64,000 nt of DNA from an uncultured Bdellovibrionales bacterium (GCA_964612055.1 CAZTBI010000002.1:5632-69631), one strand, 5' to 3'. Positions 663 through 13,981 are shown, numbered from the stretch's first letter. Notes: generated from the letters alone by a model not told the origin. Program-made: numbers and translations.

Positions 663-748
663 GCCGAGATGGTGGAATGGTAGACACACTAGCCTTAGGA
701 GCTAGCGGGAGCAATCCCATGAGAGTTCGAGTCTCTCTCTCGGCACCA
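663..748 (+). tRNA. tRNA-Leu (anticodon TAG), type II with long variable arm, CCA encoded
   Basis: Cloverleaf: acceptor GCCGAGA/TCTCGGC, anticodon stem CTAGC/GCTAG with loop CTTAGGA, long variable arm, T-loop TTCGAGT, ends ACCA. Confidence 0.85.
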
Positions 749-802: not shown

Positions 803-3625
803 CTAACGTTTTCGGAAAGGGAGCTGCGAAAGTTCCAAACGTTCCGGCAAAAGAACAAGGAAGAAACGCGTCGTAAAGAGAATCAAGACGACACTGAGGA
901 GGATTCTAAACGAGAACATGACAGAGGTTGGGATGTAGGACGCCAAGGTAGCAAGATATTTTTTTGCTCCCGGAAGTGTCCCTTGAGCAAAACCAGGTTC
1001 CTTGAGTTCAACCTGATCCGTGGCCGAGAAATGGATCTCTGGCGAATCAAGTGGTGAGATATTCCAAATGTCACGGAGTGCCTGACGAATACCCTGCGGC
1101 TGAACGACTGCAGCAGAGAGGCCGATGTTGTAAACATCCGGAGCTTCTTTGAGGGCAGTGAAAGCAATACTCATCCCCCCTCCCTCAGTCATAGAGACAC
1201 CGTCCACTGTCCACTGACGAACCGCCCTATCAGCCAAGAAATTTGGCAAGAAGGCTGCTTTAAAGGAGAGATTCTCACCAGAAAATCCTTCAAAAATTGA
1301 ATCGCTATATTCGCTACAATAACCATTTGGACAGGCCAGTGAAGCAGCGCCGTCCACATCCTTATACTGACCAACTAGTTTTGGCCAAGCCGTATTCGGA
1401 TCAACAGATTCTATAGAAAGTTCTGGGTCAATAACATGGAAAGCACGGGAGAGAGTCACTGTCTTACCCGTTTTCACGTCATTCGCTGTCATCGTGACAG
1501 CATAGGCGTCACCGACATTCCCTGATATTGGAAAGAAGTTTACAAAATTTTGTTGTCCAACAGTGATAGCGCCTGAAGCATCTTTTTCACAATCCTGAGA
1601 GACAACTGATCGATTACAGAAGAGTTTCGTCCCGTTGATAGTCCACTGGAAATTCGTCAAATCTGTTGGATCAACACGTAGACCAATAATCTCATTCTTA
1701 ATAACTCGACAGGCAGCTCGATCCAGAGGATCATCATTACAAATGAGCCCGGAAGCAAGAGGGGTAGGCAAAAGCACCTGTGTCCCATCTCCCACTACCT
1801 GAGTATTTACTTTGTACGCAGAGATCTTTTTCCCTGTCGAAGTAAATTTTACCACGACATCACTTTTCCCCTTGCGAATACTACCGCTGGCAAAGTTTTC
1901 TGAAACCTTGGCAGTAAAGCGTAGATATCCGATATCTCCGGTCAAGTAATCATCAAGTTGCCTCCCCGCCAAGAGGTAACTGCCATTATTCAGAATATCA
2001 AGCTTCAACCTCACTGTATCAAGAGCTGTCCCCTTGACGCTCCCGAGCAATTTGAGCCGCTGCAAGTCACTGGTTATTTTGGCTGAAACAAGATCACCAC
2101 CACTTCGGAATTGTGGGTTGTCGCTTATTTCAACGTCCCACTCAAAAAGTATTTCATTCACGCCACGTACCGCATTACCAACACTCGCCTCAGCAATAAC
2201 GAGGTCTCCCCCGGCATCCTCTGTCTCATCATTGATAGGCGCATCCGGACTAGCCGAAACAGAGACCTCGAGATTCGTCGCCTGGCCACCCTGAGTTGGG
2301 TCGACTAAGTTTCGCTCCAGACACTTATTCAGATCAATATCAGCCGCGTACATTGTTACCTCATACCCCTTGATCGTCTTGAAAAAAGATCCTGTCTCAT
2401 CAGCCAAAGAAAGCGGACAGTCTTTCTTTGAAAAGGCCCACATGATCATTGACGAAGAATCGTCATATTTGGTCGTGATCATCGATGTTCCTTCAACAGC
2501 CAGTCCTACCTGGTCACCTGAAGAATAATTCCAGGTAAAAGTACTCTGTCCCAAACCAGTCACATTGGCTTCATCCTTATTGCCATTATCTGCGGTATCA
2601 GGATCGGCCGGATCAGTCCCCCAGAAATCCTCTTCATCAGCCCCGAAAGAACCATCGCCCGTGACGTGTCCAGGAACCACTGGAAAGAGGTGAGCACAGT
2701 AGGTATTGAAACCACCCCCACCGCCACTGCAGGTTGTCAGTTCCGTACCACAAGAAGTCGAATATTTCGCATTGGAAACGCAACGAGGGGCCCCAACACT
2801 ACATTTTGGTACACCATCTACTCCACAGGCGGGAATGCCAGCAATATTACAGACATCGGACTCGGTAAAAGAAAAAGCCTGACTCGTCGTGTCAACACCA
2901 CCATCTCCAGGAACGGTAATATCCTCGGGACTGATTGTCTGCTCCCCTTCCATACACATCGGTGACTTACCATCTGGGCAATCGAAATTGATATCACCAG
3001 CATCCCCAAGCTCATAATTCTTTCCCGAAACTGAGTCATTGACATAGCAATGGTTCGGAGTGCTTACTTTGTTGTCACCACCAAAACGGGCTTTGTAGCC
3101 ATCATTATCAGTGTCAGAGTTATAATTCGCATCTGCCTTGTCGAAACCATTCTCCGCCAAAATTTGAGCCGCCTCTATTTTCCAATCTTCGACCGTAATT
3201 CTGCCATTACTATCACGGTCACATAGTGTTCGCACATCGTCACTCGGAGTATTGGTCAATCCACATTCTGCCCGCTTCAGGTACCAGGTATAGTACAGCT
3301 CACTCTCACTGTTTGAGAAATACATGGGAAAAGCTTTGGCAGAAATTTTCTCTCCTGATTTTGGGTCGCTCGGATTAAAGAAGAGGGATGCTTCTGGCGT
3401 CGGCTTCTTCACGTCTGCCGTATTAAAGTTTTCACCCTGACTCTGAATACTCCCCACATCAAGGTGGTAACGCTTTTCCATACCAGAAAGCATGGACGAA
3501 GCAGAGGGAATCGATGGGCCACCAAACAAACCAGCCGAAACCGGAGAAGCACTTACCACAAAAAGCTGGAGCAAGAGAAGTCCGCCAAGAAATGCTTTTT
3601 GTTTTTTTCGGAGAAAACTGACCAT
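803..3625 (-). CDS. large secreted Cys/Gly/Asp/Thr-rich cell-surface protein with Sec signal peptide and C-terminal TM anchor plus basic tail
   Basis: 941 aa if started at MVSFLRKKQKAFLGGLLLLQLFVVSASPVSA (avoids overlap with upstream gene); many Cys pairs and Ca-binding-like D-x-D-x-D-G motifs; C-terminus ...YIPTSVMFSFRILLSVVLILFTTRFFLVLLPERLELSQLPFRKR. Confidence 0.6.
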   Translation of the reverse strand: MVSFLRKKQKAFLGGLLLLQLFVVSASPVSAGLFGGPSIPSASSMLSGMEKRYHLDVGSIQSQGENFNTADVKKPTPEASLFFNPSDPKSGEKISAKAFPMYFSNSESELYYTWYLKRAECGLTNTPSDDVRTLCDRDSNGRITVEDWKIEAAQILAENGFDKADANYNSDTDNDGYKARFGGDNKVSTPNHCYVNDSVSGKNYELGDAGDINFDCPDGKSPMCMEGEQTISPEDITVPGDGGVDTTSQAFSFTESDVCNIAGIPACGVDGVPKCSVGAPRCVSNAKYSTSCGTELTTCSGGGGGFNTYCAHLFPVVPGHVTGDGSFGADEEDFWGTDPADPDTADNGNKDEANVTGLGQSTFTWNYSSGDQVGLAVEGTSMITTKYDDSSSMIMWAFSKKDCPLSLADETGSFFKTIKGYEVTMYAADIDLNKCLERNLVDPTQGGQATNLEVSVSASPDAPINDETEDAGGDLVIAEASVGNAVRGVNEILFEWDVEISDNPQFRSGGDLVSAKITSDLQRLKLLGSVKGTALDTVRLKLDILNNGSYLLAGRQLDDYLTGDIGYLRFTAKVSENFASGSIRKGKSDVVVKFTSTGKKISAYKVNTQVVGDGTQVLLPTPLASGLICNDDPLDRAACRVIKNEIIGLRVDPTDLTNFQWTINGTKLFCNRSVVSQDCEKDASGAITVGQQNFVNFFPISGNVGDAYAVTMTANDVKTGKTVTLSRAFHVIDPELSIESVDPNTAWPKLVGQYKDVDGAASLACPNGYCSEYSDSIFEGFSGENLSFKAAFLPNFLADRAVRQWTVDGVSMTEGGGMSIAFTALKEAPDVYNIGLSAAVVQPQGIRQALRDIWNISPLDSPEIHFSATDQVELKEPGFAQGTLPGAKKYLATLASYIPTSVMFSFRILLSVVLILFTTRFFLVLLPERLELSQLPFRKR

Positions 3626-3636
3626 ACCACTACACA

Positions 3637-4290
3637 TCAATGAATCACCAAGAGAAAAATGTCTGTTAAGAAAAAGAATGTCCAACTTGCTGCCCAAGAA
3701 TACCAGATGGATCGTGAAAAGTAAGCGACCAGACCAGCAAGTGGGCTAAAGACAATGAGCGGTGCTCTTTGCCAAGAGATATCCCCTGAAAGATACAGCA
3801 ACCCTACAAACAACGCTGCTTGGAAAAATACCGCCAAGAGACCAAATGACTTGAGCCACAGGAGTTGCACCAGGCCACGGAAAAACACCTCATAGAGAAG
3901 CGTCGTCAATGAAACCAAGAGCAATTCGTAGAGAAGAAACCAGAAGAAATGGAGCTGTACGGTCACCGGGAAAAAGTAGTGCTCAGTAAAAGATGTATAG
4001 CGACTAAGCAAGAACATTATCCCGAGCGCCAAGGCAACACATAGTATGCCTACGAACACTCCAAGAAAGCTGCTTCCCTCCTGCCAACCCAGATTTTTCA
4101 GGGACTCCTTCAATACTATTTTACTATACAATACCGGAACTACCAAGAAGAATGTCACCCCCACTAAGAGCGTTTGAAAGACTGGATTCACCTTGTCGCT
4201 CTGACTAAAAATCCCAAGAAAAAAGATGGAGCAGAGAACCAAGAGCCCGGTCACGATAAAACGCTTATTTAAAAAAATTTCTTTGGTCAT
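3637..4290 (-). CDS. polytopic membrane protein, CPBP (CAAX protease / Abi)-like intramembrane metalloprotease family, tentative
   Basis: 217 aa, about 6 TM helices; motif YEVFFRGLVQ resembles CPBP motif 1 (EExxxR/FRG); other CPBP motifs not clearly seen. Confidence 0.35.
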   Translation of the reverse strand: MTKEIFLNKRFIVTGLLVLCSIFFLGIFSQSDKVNPVFQTLLVGVTFFLVVPVLYSKIVLKESLKNLGWQEGSSFLGVFVGILCVALALGIMFLLSRYTSFTEHYFFPVTVQLHFFWFLLYELLLVSLTTLLYEVFFRGLVQLLWLKSFGLLAVFFQAALFVGLLYLSGDISWQRAPLIVFSPLAGLVAYFSRSIWYSWAASWTFFFLTDIFLLVIH

Positions 4291-4295
4291 AGGCT

Positions 4296-4874
4296 TTACG
4301 CTACTTTTCTTACTGATTGAGGCTGGTACGCACTGTCATTAGCCGCCTCCTGTTGATACTGAGCATTATTGGCCGCTTCCGTTTCCTGGAAAGCCGCAGC
4401 CGCTCGAGACATCTGATATTCACGGATTCGTTCAGCATTGGTTCTCGCCGTTCCTTCCGCCTCCAGTTGTTTCTGCTCCTTTTTCCAGGCACTACGAGCC
4501 ATCATATAAAGAATTACCACCGTCAATGTCTCCAAAGGAAGAAAATTCAGTCCAAATCCTACTGCCTCTACCAAACTAAAGAACATGAGTACTAAACCCC
4601 GAGTCATCTTGTTGCTCTGCTTCCCTCCCGAGCGGTCGAACAGTGTCATCAGCATCCAAATCAGAAAGGCGAAACAAGCAGTCACGACCGTTCCTATCCC
4701 AGGAAATGACCCTACTGCCGCAAAATCAAGTAAGTCTTTGAGAAGAGCAATTAAGCTTAGCCCCAAATACAACATCGCAGAAGGCTTTTCTCCAGTAAAC
4801 TTTGAGGCATGACTTTGAGTAGTCCTTTTATAGGCCGCCGCCAATATTCTCGCTTGTGGAGGAAGTGGTGCCAT
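4296..4874 (-). CDS. hypothetical membrane protein with Gln/Ala-rich C-terminal tail (T4SS-cluster associated)
   Basis: 192 aa, 3-4 predicted TM segments, C-terminal low-complexity QQEAANDSAYQPQ. Confidence 0.5.
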   Translation of the reverse strand: MAPLPPQARILAAAYKRTTQSHASKFTGEKPSAMLYLGLSLIALLKDLLDFAAVGSFPGIGTVVTACFAFLIWMLMTLFDRSGGKQSNKMTRGLVLMFFSLVEAVGFGLNFLPLETLTVVILYMMARSAWKKEQKQLEAEGTARTNAERIREYQMSRAAAAFQETEAANNAQYQQEAANDSAYQPQSVRKVA

Positions 4875-4886
4875 AACTCTATCTCT

Positions 4887-6887
4887 TTAATTCCCCGCAT
4901 CAAAATCCTTTTTCGCTTCTTCAATCTCGAGGAGCTGACGCGGATCAGAAGTAATAATCTGGTCTTCGCTGTAGGAAGCGATGATCTTGATCGCCGCATG
5001 CTTGGTACCGGCAAAGAATATTCCTTCTCCGACATTACTCTCGAGGAGCAAAAACTTCTCATGATCCGTCAAAAAGAACGTCTCTGCGATAAGCTCAATC
5101 GAGGATGGCGACTGGCGCAAGAGTAACTGAAGCGAAGAGTTGGTAATAATCGGCTTGCCGTAGCGTGACGACATGAAGTCGCTGATATCCTGCGTAATAG
5201 TCGTCAGTCCGGTGTAGTATTTACGACAACGTTTGGCAATACCGAAGAGAAAGCCGGCAGCATCTTCATGCTGCATCATGACCCAGGCCTCATCAACGAC
5301 GACCACCCGCTTCTTCAGCTTGCTCCGAATTTCATTCCAGATAAACTGCAAGATAATATACATAGCAATCGGCCGCAACTCTTCCTCAAGATCACGGATA
5401 TTGAACGCTACCAACTGATTGTCCGTCTCGATATTCGTCTGCTTGTCGAGAAAGCCACCAAAAATACCGTCCGTGTAGCGTTCCAAACGGATCGACAATG
5501 ACTCTGCTCCTTCCATATTCTGAAGCACGGCGTACAAATCTGACATCGTTGGAAACGAAGAGGCATCAAACTGAGAAAAATCACTGCGCTCATTGATATC
5601 TCGAATAGCATACGTCTCTCTGATGGCCCGGTCGAGGATCGAGTCTTCTTCTGGCGTCACTGAGCCCAACATGAGATGAAGAAGACCGATCAAATTAGCA
5701 ATGGAATTCCGGAAGACTCCTTCTGGATCCTCATCATCTACGGCTTTCGGAAGATCAAAAGGGTTCAAGTGGACATCGGAATTCAGAGAAATTTTAAGGA
5801 AACTCCCGCCCACTGCTTCACAGAGGTGTTTGTATTCATTTTCCGGATCGATGATGATAACACTCGAACCAAACATCATCGATCGCAAAACTTCAAGCTT
5901 CACAGTGTAACTTTTTCCAGCACCAGATTTGGCAAACACCACCATGTTGGCATTTTCCATTTTGAAACGATCGAAGAGTATCAGTCCGTTATTATGCCGG
6001 TTGATACCATAGAAAATACCCTGGTTCGAAGAAAGATCAGAAGAAACAAAGGGGAACGTGGTTGAAAGTGGCTCGGTATTCAAGTTATTAGCGACATCGA
6101 GAACATCATTGGCCAGTGGCCGCGTCGCTGAAAATCCCTGATCCATGCGGAGAACGGCTGGTTTGATGTACACCAACTGTGCTTCCAGAATCGACTCAAT
6201 GGCGTGACACTTATCACTCAAATCATCTTCGTCTTTACCATACACCGTCATGTACAAACCGAAACGGAAAAACTTTTCTGTTCCTTGCTGCAGTCTATCA
6301 CGCAAGCCTTCAATATCTTCCAGAGCGGTCTCGAGCATCGGGTCGCGAATCTTACCATCTTCAGCTTCGATATGGATCTGTGACTGCACCTGCGTCGCTG
6401 ACTTCCGCAGATTTTTCATGATTTCCGCCGTATCAATCGGATGGACGAAAAGCGCCGTGTCCATGCTGAAATCAATATTGATGATTGGTGAAAACCAATT
6501 GGTCGAGAGATAGCGTGGATAGGCAACCACGAAGTAGGTCCGGGCCAGAACATTGCCAACCTGCATACTATTGGAGCTCAATTTGATTGCTGGTGGAGCA
6601 ATCAAGTCCCGGAGCGTAGCCACTCCTTTTTTATACAAGGCATCCGCTTCCTTTGAAGCCTCGCCTTTGCCAAAAAGAGATGGGTTGGCCATAGGATTCA
6701 TCCGAGGAAGCGGAGCGGCCGGAACCACTGGTATTGCTTTCTCTATCTTTTCTTCAGGCAGAGCTTCTGGAACAACTGCTTCTGTCTGAGGCTCTGCTGT
6801 TTCTTCAGATACTGGAGACGATGAAGTAGGTGTGAGAGTTTTTCCCAGTACCGGACCCTTATCATCTCTGAAAACTATCCTTTCCAT
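4887..6887 (-). CDS. virB4: VirB4/TrbE/CagE-family T4SS ATPase, C-terminal ATPase portion
   Basis: Walker A VVFAKSGAGKSYTV, Walker B VVVVDEAWVMM, length and order typical of the VirB4 C-terminal domain. Confidence 0.85.
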   Translation of the reverse strand: MERIVFRDDKGPVLGKTLTPTSSSPVSEETAEPQTEAVVPEALPEEKIEKAIPVVPAAPLPRMNPMANPSLFGKGEASKEADALYKKGVATLRDLIAPPAIKLSSNSMQVGNVLARTYFVVAYPRYLSTNWFSPIINIDFSMDTALFVHPIDTAEIMKNLRKSATQVQSQIHIEAEDGKIRDPMLETALEDIEGLRDRLQQGTEKFFRFGLYMTVYGKDEDDLSDKCHAIESILEAQLVYIKPAVLRMDQGFSATRPLANDVLDVANNLNTEPLSTTFPFVSSDLSSNQGIFYGINRHNNGLILFDRFKMENANMVVFAKSGAGKSYTVKLEVLRSMMFGSSVIIIDPENEYKHLCEAVGGSFLKISLNSDVHLNPFDLPKAVDDEDPEGVFRNSIANLIGLLHLMLGSVTPEEDSILDRAIRETYAIRDINERSDFSQFDASSFPTMSDLYAVLQNMEGAESLSIRLERYTDGIFGGFLDKQTNIETDNQLVAFNIRDLEEELRPIAMYIILQFIWNEIRSKLKKRVVVVDEAWVMMQHEDAAGFLFGIAKRCRKYYTGLTTITQDISDFMSSRYGKPIITNSSLQLLLRQSPSSIELIAETFFLTDHEKFLLLESNVGEGIFFAGTKHAAIKIIASYSEDQIITSDPRQLLEIEEAKKDFDAGN

Positions 6888-6898
6888 GAAAACGAAAT

Positions 6899-7588
6899 TT
6901 AAGCGAGTTCTATCTTCTCTATATTTTTCAAGTCCGTCGTCGTGAAGAGTGACGGATTGTAGCTGTTGTAGAGCAATTCTATGATCTCTTCCGTATTGAG
7001 CTGCGTCACCTTGATACCTGTAGAAGAGAGTGCGGCCGCGATGTGATCCACTCGTTGCAACAACTGACTCCTATACGTTTCAAACAACTCCCCCTTCGAG
7101 CGAACCGCTTGTTTGGGACTAAAAATACCCATCATCTTGGCCACAAAACCTCCTTCTTGATCTTCTACTGGAGAAAATGGCACCACGATATAAAAAAACT
7201 TGGACATGATATTTGAGACCTCGCTCAAGTTCTTGATGAACGCTTTGTACTCGCCGATCTGAAAACGGAGGAGTTCGTTTTGCTGCTGTTTCTCTTCGTC
7301 ATCAAGCTGCTCCATGTACGGGGCAATATTGAAGCGACGGGACTGAATGACGATCTGCACTGGAAAATCGAGCGAATTCAGAAATGCCTGGTACTGAGCA
7401 ATAATCGCTTCTTGTTCCTGGCCAGATTTAAGATCGAAATTAAGCGAAGAAACCAGAAGCACTGCTCGCAGGGCGCCTGATTTCAAAACAATCACACCGT
7501 CGCGCATTTCTTCAACATCGACGTACTTCTGAGTACTCGAGGCGCTATTGGTTCGTTTTTTTGGTTTCAAAAACTCCATACACACCAA
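6899..7588 (-). CDS. VirB4 N-terminal domain (Gram-positive PrgJ/Orf16-type), separate ORF
   Basis: YVDVEEMRDGVIVLKSGALRAVLLVSSLNFDLKSGQEQEAIIAQYQAFLNSLDFPVQIVIQS matches the characteristic N-terminal region of Gram-positive VirB4 homologs; ends 11 nt upstream of the ATPase ORF in a different frame. Confidence 0.65.
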   Translation of the reverse strand: MVCMEFLKPKKRTNSASSTQKYVDVEEMRDGVIVLKSGALRAVLLVSSLNFDLKSGQEQEAIIAQYQAFLNSLDFPVQIVIQSRRFNIAPYMEQLDDEEKQQQNELLRFQIGEYKAFIKNLSEVSNIMSKFFYIVVPFSPVEDQEGGFVAKMMGIFSPKQAVRSKGELFETYRSQLLQRVDHIAAALSSTGIKVTQLNTEEIIELLYNSYNPSLFTTTDLKNIEKIELA

Positions 7589-7666
7589 ATATCAATTATC
7601 AGCTCGCATCAATCATACTCGTTTCAACTCACCGCTCTTCTTCGTTGATTGCTCTTTGCTCTCTGT

Positions 7667-8071
7667 TTACTGTCTCCTGTCCATAATACGAGCTAACTCT
7701 TTCAGTGTATCACGGGTCAGTTGCTTTTCAGGTTGCACCTCTTCTTGTGGCTTGTTATTTTCGGAACGAGATTTTACGGAAACCATCGGCATAACTGGAC
7801 GCTCCCAAACAGCCACCTTGGGACGAAAGAGAAAAAGCACCGCCTGTCCGATAAAGGATGATAGGGTAAAACCATTAGGCTTATAAAAAGCCAGAGCGAT
7901 AAACAGGAGCACTACCGGAATACCAAACACAATGGCTAAAGTCGTTCCAAAGGTCGTAAACAAAACCAGGAGCACCGCTCCCATAGCAATCATCCAGAGC
8001 AACTGCCGCCATGTTAGTGGACCAGCAATCTTGTCTTCGACATCAACGAATTGTGGAACACTCGACATCAT
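7667..8071 (-). CDS. PrgI-family / VirB3-like small membrane protein
   Basis: 134 aa; FVDVEDKIAGPLTWRQLLWMIAMGAVLLV followed by two TM helices; placed immediately upstream of VirB4 as in Gram-positive T4SS. Confidence 0.5.
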   Translation of the reverse strand: MMSSVPQFVDVEDKIAGPLTWRQLLWMIAMGAVLLVLFTTFGTTLAIVFGIPVVLLFIALAFYKPNGFTLSSFIGQAVLFLFRPKVAVWERPVMPMVSVKSRSENNKPQEEVQPEKQLTRDTLKELARIMDRRQ

Positions 8072-8089
8072 ATGCTTGAATATATTCTC

Positions 8090-9169
8090 TTACTCTTCTT
8101 TCCCGAGACTCACCGGTCGAATATGAAAGGGGTTTGCCTTGGGCATCGGAGCCCGAGGCGCCATTCTTTGTGGCATATTCTGCGGTTCCGGTGCCGTTCT
8201 TTCCTGCGGGATAGCCTGCGCTTTTTCTGCTGGCAGAACATGTTTCGAAGAAAACGAGAGGGTCCCTGACTGTTCTGGTGCAGCTGTTTTTGGGGTATTC
8301 ATAGTGGTAGTACCAAAATGAAAACTGGCACTATTTTGCAAAGGAGCCATTCTCGATGGAGCAACAGCTTGTGGTACTGGTCGTGGCGCCTGCGGGGCGA
8401 CAAAGGTCGGGAAAAGAACCAGGCTCTGCTCGGTATCGATTTCCAAAGGAAAGTTCTCTTCTACAGACTTAAGCACGAGGTTGACTCGCTCCCGTTCTTC
8501 CGGAGAAAGTCGCTTCCCATTCTCCGAACGAAAGAGGAAATTCCCACGCTGCACACTATCATGGTGCCCCACCCCCAGTTCATCGCGGTAATACTTGATC
8601 CAATAGAGAAGCGACGGACGGACTGGTTCACTTTGAGATTTGATTTTGATGCGCTCGCGAGTAATAAGTTGGTTACCCAACTGTTCATATTTGGAAAGGG
8701 CTTGAAGGAGCGGCAGCTTCACCGTTACTACAACTTGCTTTTTCTCCTCTTCAGACACTTCCTCAACTTTCACTTTCGGTTTGATAGTCAGAATTTCTTT
8801 CTGAATAAACTCAACAATAGCCTTAGCTTGATTCGGATCACCTCCACCACTCTCAGTGAGCATACTTGCAATTCTTGCCTCCAGTTCTGTGAGCTGTATC
8901 TCACCAAAAAAGAGTTCCCGAACAATCAAACTTACACTTCCTATAACAGAATCCTTTAGTTTTACTTTTTCCTGTAGGGACTTGATTTTTTGCGGCATTT
9001 CACTAGAAAGAATCACTTCTTGCTTATCCTGAGAAAGCTTTTCGAAGGCATCCCAAACAGACTGATCATCCTCAGGGGACATCTTTTCTTCCGTACCTTC
9101 CTTTGATACTACCATCGGATAATACCGCCGCTCTTTAATTTTTTTTTCACCTAGACCAAACATTGGCAT
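8090..9169 (-). CDS. hypothetical soluble protein with Pro-rich C-terminus (T4SS-cluster associated)
   Basis: 359 aa, no TM, C-terminal APQAPRPVPQAVAPS...PQRMAPRAPMP low complexity. Confidence 0.5.
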   Translation of the reverse strand: MPMFGLGEKKIKERRYYPMVVSKEGTEEKMSPEDDQSVWDAFEKLSQDKQEVILSSEMPQKIKSLQEKVKLKDSVIGSVSLIVRELFFGEIQLTELEARIASMLTESGGGDPNQAKAIVEFIQKEILTIKPKVKVEEVSEEEKKQVVVTVKLPLLQALSKYEQLGNQLITRERIKIKSQSEPVRPSLLYWIKYYRDELGVGHHDSVQRGNFLFRSENGKRLSPEERERVNLVLKSVEENFPLEIDTEQSLVLFPTFVAPQAPRPVPQAVAPSRMAPLQNSASFHFGTTTMNTPKTAAPEQSGTLSFSSKHVLPAEKAQAIPQERTAPEPQNMPQRMAPRAPMPKANPFHIRPVSLGKEE

Positions 9170-9181
9170 GATTCTCCAATT

Positions 9182-11185
9182 CTATGGATTAATTCCTGCC
9201 GCTCTCCATGCTGCTTTTTGTTCAGCAGTCAACTTGCTATAAGCATCAGCATGTTCCTTCGGTGACCAGTTTCCACTATGAACCTGATCAGTGACGTAGG
9301 CTATGGTTTCAGCATCAACAGGACGTCCAGTCCCACCATGCACCCCTTTAACCTTTCCGAGATCTTCAGCAGACATTCCGCCTAGATGCTTGTTATAAGC
9401 ATCTTGCCTCGTCATACCAGTAGCAATATCATTGTCAATCAATACTTTTGTATGTCCCTCTTTTTTAAGCTTCTGATCAAGCTTATCTTTAATCGCAGGA
9501 TTTGTAGCAACCATACCCTGATACTGGGCAGTAGTCATACCGTCGAAAGCTTTAGCGTCCATCTTATCAACAAGTTGAGCGATCGATTTTGTGTCGTTAC
9601 CCAAATGAGAAATAGCCGAAACCAAAGTATTGGCATCTCTAAATAATTCTTTGTCGGCTTTTTTGATAAGCTCAGCGCGCTTTTCATTTTGAGCCGCAGG
9701 ATTACCCGCATTCGCGACATCGACAGCTGCCAAACCTTGATTAAGTTGGGCGGCATCTTGGAAGCCTCCGCGCTTTGATAACAACCGAACCGCTGCTTCC
9801 AATGAAGCTTTATCGTGTTTAGTAGGATCAGCAACCATTGCTCGCAACTGAGTATCACTGGTTCGCTCTTCTTCCATCCTCTTCTCCTCTTCGGAGACTT
9901 TTTTGTTATGTTGACTCTCGACAGTTCGACGATATCCAGTCTTTCCTTCTCCCACATATGCAGCCAACCTTCCTTCGCTCTTCTCGCTAGAATCTTTCCA
10001 GTACTTAGGAGTGGCAAATCTTAGAACTTTATTATTTTCGGCACGACTCTTCAGGCCTTTTCCGACGCCTCTTGTCAACGTGTTATTATAGGTTTTCCTT
10101 CCTGCCCATTTAGCAAATTTTTGCCCCGTACCAGCTACAGCGCCGGCACCCATGATAGACATGGAAGTTGCCAGTCCAATCGCCATCCACAGCATAATCA
10201 TGGGGACGGTAAACATGGCCATAGAGCTAATAAAGCCAGCAGAAGTCGGGGCAGTATTAGCAGTCGCAGAATCAATAAATTGTTTCACCGTGTTGTCCTT
10301 CGCTATTTCTGCAAAAAAACGCGTAGCAACCATGAGCATAAGAGCTGCTGCTGGACCAAAAAACGTATACTGCCACAGTTTATCCCACCACATACCGCCA
10401 TATTTTCCGAGTCCCGGGATGACCGAAGCGGCAAAGCCGACAGAAGAAAAAATAAGAAGGATCACCAAGGCCGCTATACGAATCACAAATAGTATCGCCA
10501 AGACAAGCAGCGAAATTGAAAAGATGAACAGGAATACAATGGCCATGAGAATCTGTGACACTCCCATGCTTGTAAAATCAACCTCTTGGATACCACCCTT
10601 TGATCCAGGAATGAGGATGTTTTGAATTTGCGAAGCACTCAAAACTGTTCCCAGATAATCTTTCTGGTTTGTACCATCTCCAGTAGCCCCTATTTGATTA
10701 ATAAAGTAGTACATCGGGACATTGGTCACATCGATAATAATCCGGGTAATAGGGAAACTGAAGTTCACAAAGAGCGCCGCCAAGACAATGCTGAGCAATG
10801 TTTTCTTGTAGTTGCTCGCTACCTGAAAAACGATAGTAAAGGCAGTATAAAGAAGCGTCAGGATAAAGAAGAGGTTGAAAAAATCTCGAACAAACTGCCA
10901 CATGGTGTAGACACTGGCACGATTGAGCAGCCCATCTGATCCAGAGATATAATCCGGATTCACTGCCCATTCAAAAAGCGTAATAGCTATTGAGGCGAGC
11001 CAGCCAATCATCACAAAAACACCGTAGAGAAGAGCCTTGAATGCAGATCCTACGGTATTCCCAAGCAAATCGCCAAGACCAGCGTGCACCAAAGACGGGC
11101 TTAGAAAAAATATTCCCGATGCAAAAGCAAGAAGCGTGAAAGCAGAGACGACGATATTTTGTCTTTTGTTTTTTTTGAACACCAT
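9182..11185 (-). CDS. VirB6/TrbL-like polytopic membrane protein with C-terminal soluble domain
   Basis: 667 aa, N-terminal signal/TM then 6 or more TM helices over about 350 aa, hydrophilic C-terminal about 300 aa; position and topology as PrgH/TcpH/VirB6. Confidence 0.5.
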   Translation of the reverse strand: MVFKKNKRQNIVVSAFTLLAFASGIFFLSPSLVHAGLGDLLGNTVGSAFKALLYGVFVMIGWLASIAITLFEWAVNPDYISGSDGLLNRASVYTMWQFVRDFFNLFFILTLLYTAFTIVFQVASNYKKTLLSIVLAALFVNFSFPITRIIIDVTNVPMYYFINQIGATGDGTNQKDYLGTVLSASQIQNILIPGSKGGIQEVDFTSMGVSQILMAIVFLFIFSISLLVLAILFVIRIAALVILLIFSSVGFAASVIPGLGKYGGMWWDKLWQYTFFGPAAALMLMVATRFFAEIAKDNTVKQFIDSATANTAPTSAGFISSMAMFTVPMIMLWMAIGLATSMSIMGAGAVAGTGQKFAKWAGRKTYNNTLTRGVGKGLKSRAENNKVLRFATPKYWKDSSEKSEGRLAAYVGEGKTGYRRTVESQHNKKVSEEEKRMEEERTSDTQLRAMVADPTKHDKASLEAAVRLLSKRGGFQDAAQLNQGLAAVDVANAGNPAAQNEKRAELIKKADKELFRDANTLVSAISHLGNDTKSIAQLVDKMDAKAFDGMTTAQYQGMVATNPAIKDKLDQKLKKEGHTKVLIDNDIATGMTRQDAYNKHLGGMSAEDLGKVKGVHGGTGRPVDAETIAYVTDQVHSGNWSPKEHADAYSKLTAEQKAAWRAAGINP

Positions 11186-11332: not shown

Positions 11333-12577
11333 CTAGTAAATGTATCCTTTGATGGCTCGGCTCGTAGCAGAAAGCGTCCGACGACTGGTCTTACCCCAAC
11401 CGACATAGTTCATTTCAGAGACCGTGATCGTACCGCCACTCACTTTTTCTACCAGGGCGACGTGACCATAGTACCGATTCTCAGTGGTTACTACGATGGA
11501 ACCAACCGCGGGCGTTCGCCCAGTCTTGTATCCCATAGCTTTGGCTTTGTAGAGCCAAGTACCAGCATTACCACTCCACGGAACATAGCGTTTCTGAGCC
11601 ACGTACCAGGTACAGTAGCCATACGGAAAGCGATGACCTGTACCAGCTCGCCCTTCGAGCTTCTTGAAACCAGAAGAAATATCAGTCGCTACACCACCTG
11701 TTGAAGTAGCATACTGACGCCGTTCGATGCCGGTATCAGGAGTGACTGGCTTCGGAGCTTCTTCTTTCTTTCCGTCAGGGATGATAATGAGGTCGCCCAC
11801 TTCTATTTCACCATTCGCTGGCAACTCATTGAAGGCGATAATTTTTTCCTTCTCTGCCTTATACATTGAAGCGATAGAATCAAGGGTATCACCAGACTTC
11901 ACCACATAGGAGAGTCCCGCTACCGGCAAGATAAATATCTGATCGCCTGGCTTGATCTGATCAGCATTGTCGAGGTCGTTAGCCCAGAGAACCGTATTGA
12001 CCGTAATACCGTTCTTCGAGGCGATACCACTTAAGGTATCGCCGTCCTTGACGGTATAGATCTTCACCCCGCCATCTTCTTCTGGGTCACGAGCGATAGA
12101 AGAGCCAGTCTGAGTCGAAAGAAGCACCTGGTTCCCCAAAGTAGCATTCTGAATATCCAAGAGTGAAATATCAGTTTTCTCCTCTGGATCAATAGGAGCA
12201 GGGGCATTGGCAAGCGGCACCAAAGACAGGTTCTCCTTTTTACTAACCTGCGCCGCGATACGATGCTTAGACGAAAGCGCTTCCTCAGCAGAAGCACCGT
12301 CGCCGTTAATATAGCCGAAAAGAAGGCTCTCTGAGTCTTTTCCCTGAGTGAAATTACTCACCGAAACGAGTAAAGCGCTCGAAGTGACGATAGAAAAGGC
12401 TGAATAGTTTCGAAAAATACGTACGACTCGATAGCCGGAAACTTCCTTGATAAAATGAAGCACTCTCGTCTGAAGACGGTGAAGGCGAGTATGCAAAGCG
12501 TAGGAAGAGACAGGATAGTCTCTTTTTTCCTTCACGTGAGGAGCGCGTTTCCAAGGAAACGATAAACGCTCTTTCAC
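11333..12577 (-). CDS. peptidoglycan hydrolase with two LysM domains and C-terminal CHAP domain (VirB1 functional analog)
   Basis: LysM motifs YTVKDGDTLSGIASKNGITV and YVVKSGDTLDSIASMYKAEKEKI; CHAP catalytic Cys (YGYCTWYV) and His (YGHVALVEKV); N-terminal TM anchor. Confidence 0.8.
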   Translation of the reverse strand: MKERLSFPWKRAPHVKEKRDYPVSSYALHTRLHRLQTRVLHFIKEVSGYRVVRIFRNYSAFSIVTSSALLVSVSNFTQGKDSESLLFGYINGDGASAEEALSSKHRIAAQVSKKENLSLVPLANAPAPIDPEEKTDISLLDIQNATLGNQVLLSTQTGSSIARDPEEDGGVKIYTVKDGDTLSGIASKNGITVNTVLWANDLDNADQIKPGDQIFILPVAGLSYVVKSGDTLDSIASMYKAEKEKIIAFNELPANGEIEVGDLIIIPDGKKEEAPKPVTPDTGIERRQYATSTGGVATDISSGFKKLEGRAGTGHRFPYGYCTWYVAQKRYVPWSGNAGTWLYKAKAMGYKTGRTPAVGSIVVTTENRYYGHVALVEKVSGGTITVSEMNYVGWGKTSRRTLSATSRAIKGYIY

Positions 12578-13027: not shown

Positions 13028-13981
13028 ATGACCTCTTTTGAAAAGCCACAGAACGATATCGAAGCTTTAGCCAAGCGCTTTTGTGACCACCTCGAGATAG
13101 AACTCAACCGATCCAGACGGACACTCGAGAGCTATTCTCGGGTGCTGCAGTCCTTCTTTTCCTGGGGAAACATCACTATTCCAGCCGATATTACCGCCGA
13201 AAAGGTCCGGGAATATCGTCTTCACCTGAACCGTAAGTCGAACCGTCGAGGGGAAAGCCTCAAGAAGAACACCCAGTCCTACCACGCTATTGTACTTCGC
13301 ACCTTCCTCAAATACCTCGCTAAACAAGACATCGAGGTCCTGCCAGCTGAAAAAATCGAGGTGGGAAAGGCCGAAGACCGACAGATTGATTTCCTCGAAT
13401 ACGATGAGGTCATGCGTCTGATCGAAGCCGCCTCCGGAAAAACCCCGAAGAACCTCCGTGATCAAGCCATCCTGGAACTTCTTTTTTCTTCGGGGCTGCG
13501 CGTCTCGGAACTCGTCTCACTCGATCGCAACCACGTGAATCTGGAGAAAGAAGAGTTCAGTGTCCGTGGTAAGGGTCGAAAATTACGTATTGTCTTTATT
13601 TCACCTGAAGCCAAGAAATCACTCCAAAAATATCTCGATATCCGCTCTGATGTCGATCCGGCTCTCTTCATCGCCTATCCCAAAAAAGGCCTGGTCAATG
13701 AGAAGAATAGGAAGCGCGAGACACTCCGTCTCACGACCAGGAGCATCGCTCGCATCGTGAAACACTATGCCACCAAGGCTGGAATACTGAAAGATGTCCA
13801 TCCGCACACCCTGCGTCACAGTTTTGCCACGGATCTTTTGGTTAATGGTGCCGATATCAGATCAGTACAAGCCATGCTTGGACATGCCTCCATCACTACC
13901 ACTCAGATCTACACCCACGTCACCAACGAACGCCTGAAAGAAGTCCATCAATCCTTCCACGCCAAAAGAAAAAAGAAGTGA
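13028..13981 (+). CDS. xerD: tyrosine site-specific recombinase XerC/XerD family
   Basis: C-terminal catalytic box HPHTLRHSFATDLLVNGADIRSVQAMLGHASITTTQIYTHV; RSRRTLESYSRVL N-terminal SAM-like domain. Confidence 0.85.
   Translation: MTSFEKPQNDIEALAKRFCDHLEIELNRSRRTLESYSRVLQSFFSWGNITIPADITAEKVREYRLHLNRKSNRRGESLKKNTQSYHAIVLRTFLKYLAKQDIEVLPAEKIEVGKAEDRQIDFLEYDEVMRLIEAASGKTPKNLRDQAILELLFSSGLRVSELVSLDRNHVNLEKEEFSVRGKGRKLRIVFISPEAKKSLQKYLDIRSDVDPALFIAYPKKGLVNEKNRKRETLRLTTRSIARIVKHYATKAGILKDVHPHTLRHSFATDLLVNGADIRSVQAMLGHASITTTQIYTHVTNERLKEVHQSFHAKRKKK

Follow-up and report, generated by a model that had tools for sequence, protein, structure and literature searches.

Does a CPBP-like membrane protein encoded beside a giant surface protein process that protein, or does it only bind it? 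The question is raised by a 64,000-nucleotide stretch of DNA (hereafter the window; GCA_964612055.1 CAZTBI010000002.1:5632-69631, recorded as an uncultured Bdellovibrionales bacterium), in which the gene for a secreted, Cys-rich protein of ∼940 residues directly follows the gene for a 217-residue membrane protein of the CPBP/Rce1-like type. A preliminary description of this sequence had read the two as a dedicated sorting pair: the large protein would end in a sorting signal composed of a short motif, a hydrophobic helix and an Arg/Lys cluster, its neighbor would be the processing protease, and the product might be a pilus-tip adhesin for the adjacent type IV secretion system (T4SS). Both open reading frames are present on the minus strand with the boundaries drawn there (Table 1), and the C-terminal sequence quoted is exact. 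Similarity to the CPBP superfamily is found and the tail is not a plain anchor shared by unrelated proteins; the pairing survives, and the enzymatic mechanism does not.

A strictly conserved gene pair

Scanning one genome per species with the large-protein alignment gives a set of 80 loci. A homologue of the 217-residue protein is encoded directly upstream, on the same strand, in every locus whose sequence extends beyond the start of the large gene (76/76); the other four start at a contig end and are excluded from this count. The partners counted reach down to ∼33% identity. Altogether, 173 homologues of the small protein and 388 of the large protein (45-100% identity) were found, almost all of them from metagenome-assembled genomes (MAGs) of Candidatus Moranbacteria/Moraniibacteriota (Patescibacteria). 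The pair is also adjacent in the distant loci L085-L092 (seven further loci), which were reached via a search with the tail of the large protein. Thus, as the preliminary description had supposed, the genes constitute a dedicated pair, and its conservation is strict.

The large gene begins within the stop codon of its partner or right next to it, and the two genes are probably translationally coupled. In the window, the long open reading frame (803-3697, minus strand) offers two starts. The ATG at 3625 yields 940 residues and lies 11 nt beyond the upstream stop, and the alternative ATG at 3637-3635, used by a 100%-identical database protein (P0121), yields 944 residues and overlaps that stop as TGATG (1-nt overlap). 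The length of 941 residues first reported had counted the stop codon, and the reported gap of 12 bp is either 11 nt or the 1-nt overlap, depending on the start.

The pair is normally the last unit of a T4SS operon, in agreement with its reported position beside T4SS genes, but the tightest linkage is that of the CPBP-like protein with the large protein. Three distant loci, L085 (3339-7654), L086 (2022-6033) and L087 (9308-13462), keep the pair, and VirB4 is not in their upstream sequence (∼2.7-4 kb for L085 and L086, 10 kb for L087), where the genes encode UPF0102, a DksA/TraR zinc finger protein and LspA. Because the downstream neighbors of the pair in L087 match those in L091, a T4SS-bearing locus, this clade seems to have lost or relocated its T4SS block while retaining the pair. 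This points to a linkage between the two proteins, not just with the operon, and it also weakens the idea of a pilus-tip adhesin.

Two explanations that dispense with any contact between the proteins have to be weighed against this pattern. In the simpler one, the C-terminus would anchor the protein as in any type-I membrane protein, and the genes would be neighbors for reasons of operon economy, without functional meaning. A hydrophobic helix followed by a mostly positive segment is indeed what the positive-inside rule predicts, but adjacency in 76/76 loci with such divergent partners, its persistence in the seven distant loci, and an anchor that carries an invariant Pro and Arg and is conserved above the protein's average make this very improbable. 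In the other, both proteins are T4SS assembly parts without specific mutual contact. The CPBP-like protein would then serve the assembly in a general structural or regulatory capacity, or would provide Abi-type immunity/self-protection, and the tail would dock elsewhere, e.g. on the VirB6-like or the 192-residue protein of the operon. The gene order, which is as in the window in 52/52 loci with at least 9 kb of upstream sequence, fits this explanation, as does the fact that CPBP/Abi proteins act as bacteriocin immunity factors. However, Abi immunity function is reported to need conserved motifs, which are degenerate here, and the pair stays adjacent in L085-L087, where the upstream sequence (∼2.7-10 kb) contains no T4SS genes and the downstream match of L087 with L091 suggests that it outlasted the T4SS block. 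We consider this second explanation, in each of its forms, rather improbable.

A conserved C-terminal tail confined to one protein family

The large protein has one C-terminal hydrophobic segment (∼897-928 by hydropathy), and AlphaFold2 places tail helices at residues 888-896 and 900-925, the second being the transmembrane (TM) helix. The core of the tail reads KYLAAxxSYIP-xS-xx-F-x-F-R-I-x-L-S-xx-L-x-L-F. Pro899, Arg907 and Leu914 are invariant, and Pro899 and Arg907 are retained even in the most distant members. Among 92 alignment segments along the protein, residues 891-920 rank 20th in conservation and the extreme C-terminus ranks 90th; the conserved stretch extends into the TM helix as far as its midpoint. 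Beyond the helix the sequence varies: most tails have 3-4 basic residues there, the net charge is zero or negative in 27/116 tails, and several distant tails have acidic ends. As first proposed, the tail is more than an anonymous anchor and carries a motif that is conserved. In terms of the tripartite form of a sorting signal, the SYIP motif and the helix are conserved, and the basic cluster, which had been counted among the sorting-signal features, is unconserved.

The tail is confined to one protein family. The preliminary description suggested a genome-wide search for other carriers; a profile search against 1.84 billion representative proteins gives 62 matches, every one C-terminal. All but two of these are members or fragments of the large-protein family, the exceptions being a low-complexity protein (P0255) and an unclear 160-residue fragment (P0248). 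Each locus (window and 80 loci) has one tail, and in the window and loci L001-L004 no protein besides the large protein itself bears it. Single-target sorting systems are known, and D. H. Haft's sorting-signal models are said to include single-target pairs encoded side by side. The restriction to one family thus lowers the probability of a sorting role and does no more than that.

Other properties of the tail also fit poorly with its description as a sorting signal. No Cys is conserved in the tail alignment, and a scan of the tail alone against NCBIfam gives no match at E <= 10. Furthermore, the TM helix is conserved in sequence, which one would not expect if the anchor were cleaved and discarded.

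A CPBP/Rce1-like partner with degenerate motifs

The small protein is modeled by AlphaFold2 (predicted local distance difference test, pLDDT, 87.5) as seven long helices, one more than the six TM segments first assigned to it; the EVFFRG motif noted at the same time is present, within YEVFFRG (residues 133-139). The CAAX protease family PF02517 matches the window protein over residues 117-202 with E = 0.0011 and 19.6 bits, below the cut-off of 22.4. The match is clearer for the family: 37/43 members match at E <= 0.01 (best 1.9e-7), and some homologues bear a precomputed PF02517 match. NCBIfam CPBP subfamily models give weak matches, among them MrtS to 22/43 members (best E = 6.1e-5) and MrtP to 4/43, and no Mrt model matches the window protein at E <= 1. 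Structurally, the best match in the PDB is Rce1 (4CAD; probability 0.80, TM-score 0.42, E = 0.24, 12-13% identity), and the family profile finds nothing among PDB chains at E <= 10. Judged from its sequence, the small protein is a divergent member of the CPBP/Rce1-like superfamily, sub-threshold for the window sequence itself; the proposed family assignment thus holds.

The catalytic signature of this superfamily is a different matter. Active CPBP enzymes require EExxxR, FxxxH and HxxxN/D (PMC11980579, PMC12260438), and the required residues of MrtX are E146, H188, H223 and N227 (PMC11980579). In the 77 Moranbacteria-type partners, E134 and R138 of motif 1 are invariant, and position 133, where the first Glu would stand, is Tyr in 59, Phe in 12, Leu in 4, Asp in 1 and Ile in 1, and never Glu. 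Distant partners carry YDFLFRG, YGFFFNG or NEFFFKG, the YGFFFNG partner lacking equivalents of both E134 and R138. No alignment column reaches 30% His, the family has no invariant or near-invariant His, and two distant partners are entirely devoid of it. The catalytic Glu/His/His/Asn set is thus lost, a conclusion that rests on the single xExxxRG motif and the absence of a conserved His and is independent of any alignment to canonical enzymes. Glu122 and Asp210 are kept even in distant partners, and several polar helix residues (E134, R138, S194, D210, Y121, Q39 and Q157) are invariant or nearly so in Moranbacteria.

This suggests that the small protein is likely a pseudo-protease and probably not an enzyme; with the catalytic set gone, the sorting protease of the preliminary description becomes unlikely. 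No protein with the canonical EExxxR…H…HxxxN arrangement was found in the window or the related loci examined. In line with the earlier remark that no classical sortase or exosortase is seen, the seven operon proteins (803-9169) give no Pfam or NCBIfam match to a sortase, exosortase, archaeosortase or rhombosortase (the 667-residue and CHAP/LysM proteins of the cluster were scanned against Pfam only). A tblastn search of plasmids with the small protein gives no match.

We consider it quite unlikely that the pair is instead a dedicated one-to-one sorting system, in which a CPBP-like protease would work with a non-canonical active site (e.g. Glu134/Glu122/Asp210/Ser194). Such an enzyme would cut the large protein at the SYIP motif or close to it, or else where the helix ends in LLPE, and would thereby release or re-anchor it. 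The strict pairing and tight translational linkage, the signature motif directly before the TM helix, the basic residues that follow the helix in most tails and the similarity, weak as it is, to myxosortase-type models would all suit such an enzyme. However, of the canonical catalytic residues only the second Glu remains, and even this Glu and the motif Arg are lost in the YGFFFNG partner, which keeps its large neighbor. The partners devoid of His argue in the same direction, and so does the tail, with its lack of the conserved Cys seen in myxosortase-family tags, of any sorting-signal model match and of a conserved basic cluster, and with a TM helix too well conserved for a discarded anchor.

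The large surface protein

The N-terminus of the large protein is signal-peptide-like (...LFVVSASPVSA/GLF), and cleavage is predicted after this AxA-type site. The signal-peptide region is poorly conserved (ranks 81-89 of the 92 segments). The protein was rightly called Cys-rich: it has 20 Cys (2.1%), 16 of them invariant and 4 nearly invariant among 50 homologues. A Pfam scan of the protein and 49 homologues reveals no domain, NCBIfam gives none for the window protein either, and the family profile gives a single chance-level match among PDB chains. The AlphaFold2 model is beta-rich (pLDDT 79). Its Foldseek matches include Dscam, NCAM, the macroglobulin (MG) domains of complement C3, an archaeal S-layer protein, an RTX adhesin and phage Hoc/immunoglobulin (Ig) proteins, that is, proteins with tandem Ig/fibronectin type III (FN3)-like domains. 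Modeled in this way, the protein reads as a disulfide-stabilized cell-surface protein with tandem Ig-like domains; such repeats are typical of surface and adhesion proteins and are counted here toward a surface role.

The most conserved part of the protein is residues 321-470 (window ∼2216-2665, minus strand), far above the Ig-like repeats. This block is acidic and Asn/Gly-rich (…FWGTxPxDPDTADNGNKDEANVxGLGQSxFTWNY…GDQVGVAVEGTSM…) and has no family match. It could be a calcium-binding or catalytic core.

A possible non-catalytic dock for the anchor helix

By analogy with other CPBP-fold proteins, the small protein may act as a non-catalytic scaffold or dock that binds, within the membrane, the large protein's conserved anchor helix, a reading that we judge to stand in even balance. 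The signal peptide would export the large protein, the Ig-like stack would be displayed on the surface, and the single C-terminal TM helix would keep it anchored. The 217-residue partner would bind this helix inside the membrane rather than cutting it, and Arg907 could contact the conserved acidic Glu122 or Asp210 of the partner in the outer leaflet. Such a contact would stabilize, orient or localize the surface protein. The conservation of residues 891-920, together with the invariance of Pro899 and Arg907, is read here as the constraint of an interaction surface. The topology of the partner (N-terminus in, C-terminus out), read from charged loops and the model, would place Glu122 and Asp210 in the outer leaflet, where Arg907 should sit. 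The Arg-acid contact is a specific prediction that we infer, as we do the physical binding of partner and tail and the absence of cleavage.

Several observations weigh against the docking of the tail on its partner. Rce1 is a weak fold match (E = 0.24, TM-score 0.42), and the polar set E134/R138/S194/D210/Y121/Q39/Q157 could be a non-canonical active site. Mutual-information covariation (with average product correction, APC) between the partner and the large protein, across 77 sequence pairs, shows tail columns in none of the 50 top-scoring column pairs, against 1.9 expected, in a comparison of little power; a missing partner/tail signal is also what two subunits without mutual contact would give. 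Finally, the T4SS link is one of gene order, and the adhesin role is putative.

As for the role of the pair, in Moranbacteria it closes the VirB4/PrgI/TrsD T4SS operon as the final part to be translated. This position makes the large protein the best candidate for the surface or host-contact component of the machine, and it may act as an adhesin. The broader proposal, an undescribed lineage-wide module of Moranbacteria and related Patescibacteria in which a dead CPBP-fold receptor or chaperone serves the anchor of a T4SS-linked surface protein, is tentative, and we would sooner doubt than assert it.

Attachment to host cells is regarded as the lifestyle of Patescibacteria, and in one cultured relative the T4SS genes are essential for it (PMC12102498). 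An Ig-repeat surface protein of ∼850-1,200 residues, which keeps its place as the final gene of the T4SS operon throughout Moranbacteria, is a candidate host-contact part, and its obligate partner offers a testable handle on it. If this broader proposal is true, the missing surface/host-contact component of the Patescibacteria T4SS would be identified. The pair would also be a bacterial counterpart of APH-1 with nicastrin and would add a further CAAX-protease-like scaffold outside Firmicutes, hard-wired genetically to its partner. In any case, a CPBP-type motif beside a tail made of a motif, a TM helix and a charged end is insufficient to call a sorting system.

Organization of the T4SS operon

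The cluster is transcribed in the order LysM+CHAP hydrolase, 667-residue (VirB6-like) protein, 359-residue protein, PrgI, TrsD, VirB4, 192-residue protein, CPBP-like protein and large protein (Table 1). In grouping VirB4 and PrgI/VirB3 with TrsD and a cell-wall hydrolase, the cluster matches the Patescibacteria T4SS locus with an FATA-like mating-pair formation (MPF) type. Pfam and NCBIfam scans of the cluster proteins reveal no match to a relaxase or VirD4; chromosomal, relaxase-less T4SSs of the monoderm type are known in Patescibacteria (Quinonero-Coronel et al. 2025, PMC12102498).

Table 1. Features of the gene pair and the neighboring T4SS cluster, in window coordinates.
Feature	Position	Strand	Basis or remarks
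tRNA-Leu(tag), downstream end of the operon	663..748	(+)	
Large surface protein gene, last gene of the operon	803..3625	(-)	Open reading frame
Conserved tail, residues 888-940	806..964	(-)	Juxtamembrane helix KKYLAxxASYIP; TM helix xSVMFSFRILLSxxLxLF…LLPE; variable cytoplasmic end
Predicted TM helix, ∼residues 900-925, holding Arg907	851..928	(-)	AlphaFold2/DSSP
Predicted signal peptide, residues 1-31 (MVSFLRKKQKAFLGGLLLLQLFVVSASPVSA/G)	3533..3625	(-)	Hydrophobic segment 11-35
CPBP/Rce1-like 217-residue protein gene	3637..4290	(-)	Pfam, AlphaFold2, fold match
Degenerate CPBP motif 1, YEVFFRG (residues 133-139), in place of EExxxRG	3874..3894	(-)	
192-residue membrane protein gene, between VirB4 and CPBP-like genes	4296..4874	(-)	Hydrophobic segments; no family match
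VirB4-type T4SS ATPase (CD1110/monoderm type)	4887..6887	(-)	NF045971, E = 1.4e-105, 354 bits vs cut-off 325; PF19044
TrsD/TraC-N-terminal-like protein (229 residues), separate gene	6899..7588	(-)	Weak sub-cut-off matches
PrgI (VirB3-like) membrane protein	7667..8071	(-)	PF12666, E = 2.7e-12
359-residue operon protein, Pro-rich C-terminus	8090..9169	(-)	No family match; 52/52 loci
667-residue polytopic membrane protein, position of VirB6/PrgH-like channel subunit	9182..11185	(-)	52/52 loci
LysM + CHAP cell-wall hydrolase (VirB1 analogue), first cluster gene	11333..12577	(-)	PF01476, PF05257

Individual components show different degrees of divergence. The TrsD-like protein has weak, sub-cut-off matches: to NF041427 (TrsD) with 33 bits, where 200 are required (E = 4.2e-8), and to the VirB4 model NF045975 over its N-terminal part (E = 1.5e-11). 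Its homologue in L001 carries the TraC-like domain PF26593. The VirB4 N-terminal-like domain is thus a gene of its own directly upstream of the VirB4 ATPase, as is the case for most Patescibacteria (PMC12102498). The 667-residue protein has a signal-like N-terminus and ∼6 hydrophobic segments, and the Pfam scan gives it no match; the protein in its position in L091 carries PF19590 (TrbL_3). The LysM + CHAP hydrolase is encoded no more than 10 kb upstream in 39/52 loci. A single-sequence search detects a homologue of the 192-residue protein at its position in 42/52 loci, and nine related loci examined in detail have a gene of similar size (96-181 residues) there; it is a fast-evolving T4SS component.

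A T4SS_pilin domain protein (PF18895; L090, 12639-13526) lies directly downstream of the large protein in one locus, where the window has tRNA-Leu, and a small gene of the 23S_rRNA_IVP family lies between the gene in the position of the 359-residue protein and PrgI in some lineages (L088, 5143-5493; L091, 5269-5634). Just upstream of the T4SS cluster, the window encodes a tyrosine recombinase (Phage_integrase, Xer-like; 13028-13981, plus strand) that is syntenic in at least 20 related loci. An integrative element bounded by tRNA-Leu and this integrase was considered and rejected, because the integrase is a syntenic neighbor in these loci and no att-like repeat of the tRNA end is present, the best match being 13 nt, to another tRNA-Leu.

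The title of the window's record recurs in the databases. Many public Third Party Annotation (TPA) MAG records titled 'uncultured Bdellovibrionales bacterium' carry a Moranbacteria-type cluster (L005, L006, L009-L015 and others), as do one record titled Saccharibacteria and one titled 'Candidatus Fimivivens'. These records are probably mislabeled.

Comparison with known systems

SpdC, SpbR and LnsB are CPBP homologues with degenerate motifs (PMC12260438), and the first two, from Staphylococcus aureus, are the closest functional precedents. SpdC (LyrA) complexes the membrane-anchored hydrolase SagB, whose TM helix packs on TM3 of SpdC and is required for the complex (10.1101/2020.05.21.109470). 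SpbR, with the motifs HELYMR/FIYLD/QIVAI, binds and inhibits the signal peptidase SpsB (PMC12260438). As in SpdC-SagB and SpbR-SpsB, the small protein is a polytopic protein of apparent CPBP/Rce1 fold with degenerate motifs, and SpbR has lost the first Glu just as YEVFFR has. SpdC and SpbR act non-catalytically by binding a partner, and such binding is what is predicted for the 217-residue protein. Unlike these systems, the present one shows no detectable sequence relation to them beyond the superfamily, its partner is a C-terminally anchored Ig-repeat surface protein of ∼940 residues rather than a small enzyme, and its genes are adjacent, probably translationally coupled and usually part of a T4SS operon.

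The myxosortase MrtX and its MYXO-CTERM targets (with MrtS and MrtP) likewise combine a CPBP-family membrane protein with a motif, a TM helix and a short cytoplasmic end, and some reduced genomes encode the targets beside the enzyme gene (PMC11980579). However, MrtX has intact EExxxR, His and HxxxN motifs, whereas the catalytic residues are absent from the pair described here. The MYXO-CTERM tag carries a lipidated Cys that is invariant and ends in an Arg-rich stretch, whereas the present tail has no conserved Cys and a variable basic end. While MYXO-CTERM occurs on dozens of proteins per genome (PMC11980579), this tail occurs on one protein family.

Rce1, the type II CAAX prenyl endopeptidase (4CAD), and PF02517 provide the best structural match, the superfamily match and the remnant xExxxRG of motif 1. 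Unlike Rce1, to which identity is 12-13% at a TM-score of 0.42, the small protein has seven helices rather than eight, and the catalytic Glu, both His and the Asn are unconserved.

APH-1 in gamma-secretase is a 7-TM, CPBP-derived, non-proteolytic scaffold on the single C-terminal TM helix of nicastrin; its derivation from CAAX proteases was reportedly proposed by Pei et al. in 2011. The likeness, a dead CPBP scaffold on the anchor of a large type-I ectodomain, is one of analogy only. Unlike the pair described here, APH-1 and nicastrin are eukaryotic and belong to a four-subunit protease.

The published survey of Patescibacteria T4SSs lists VirB4, TrsD, PrgI/VirB3, VirB6-like and CHAP/LysM VirB1-like genes that match those of the window; it states that 'No adhesins, such as PrgB, were detected' and mentions neither CPBP, CAAX nor protease (PMC12102498). 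A search of the literature on CAAX/CPBP proteins in T4SS or conjugation and on the Moranbacteria T4SS found no relevant precedent. The pair adds a lineage-specific module to the end of the Patescibacteria T4SS operon. Thus, while the T4SS cluster and non-catalytic CPBP scaffolds were each known before, what is new is a Patescibacteria-specific, gene-linked pair that joins an apparently dead CPBP-fold protein to a giant, tail-anchored Ig-repeat surface protein and that normally terminates the T4SS operon.

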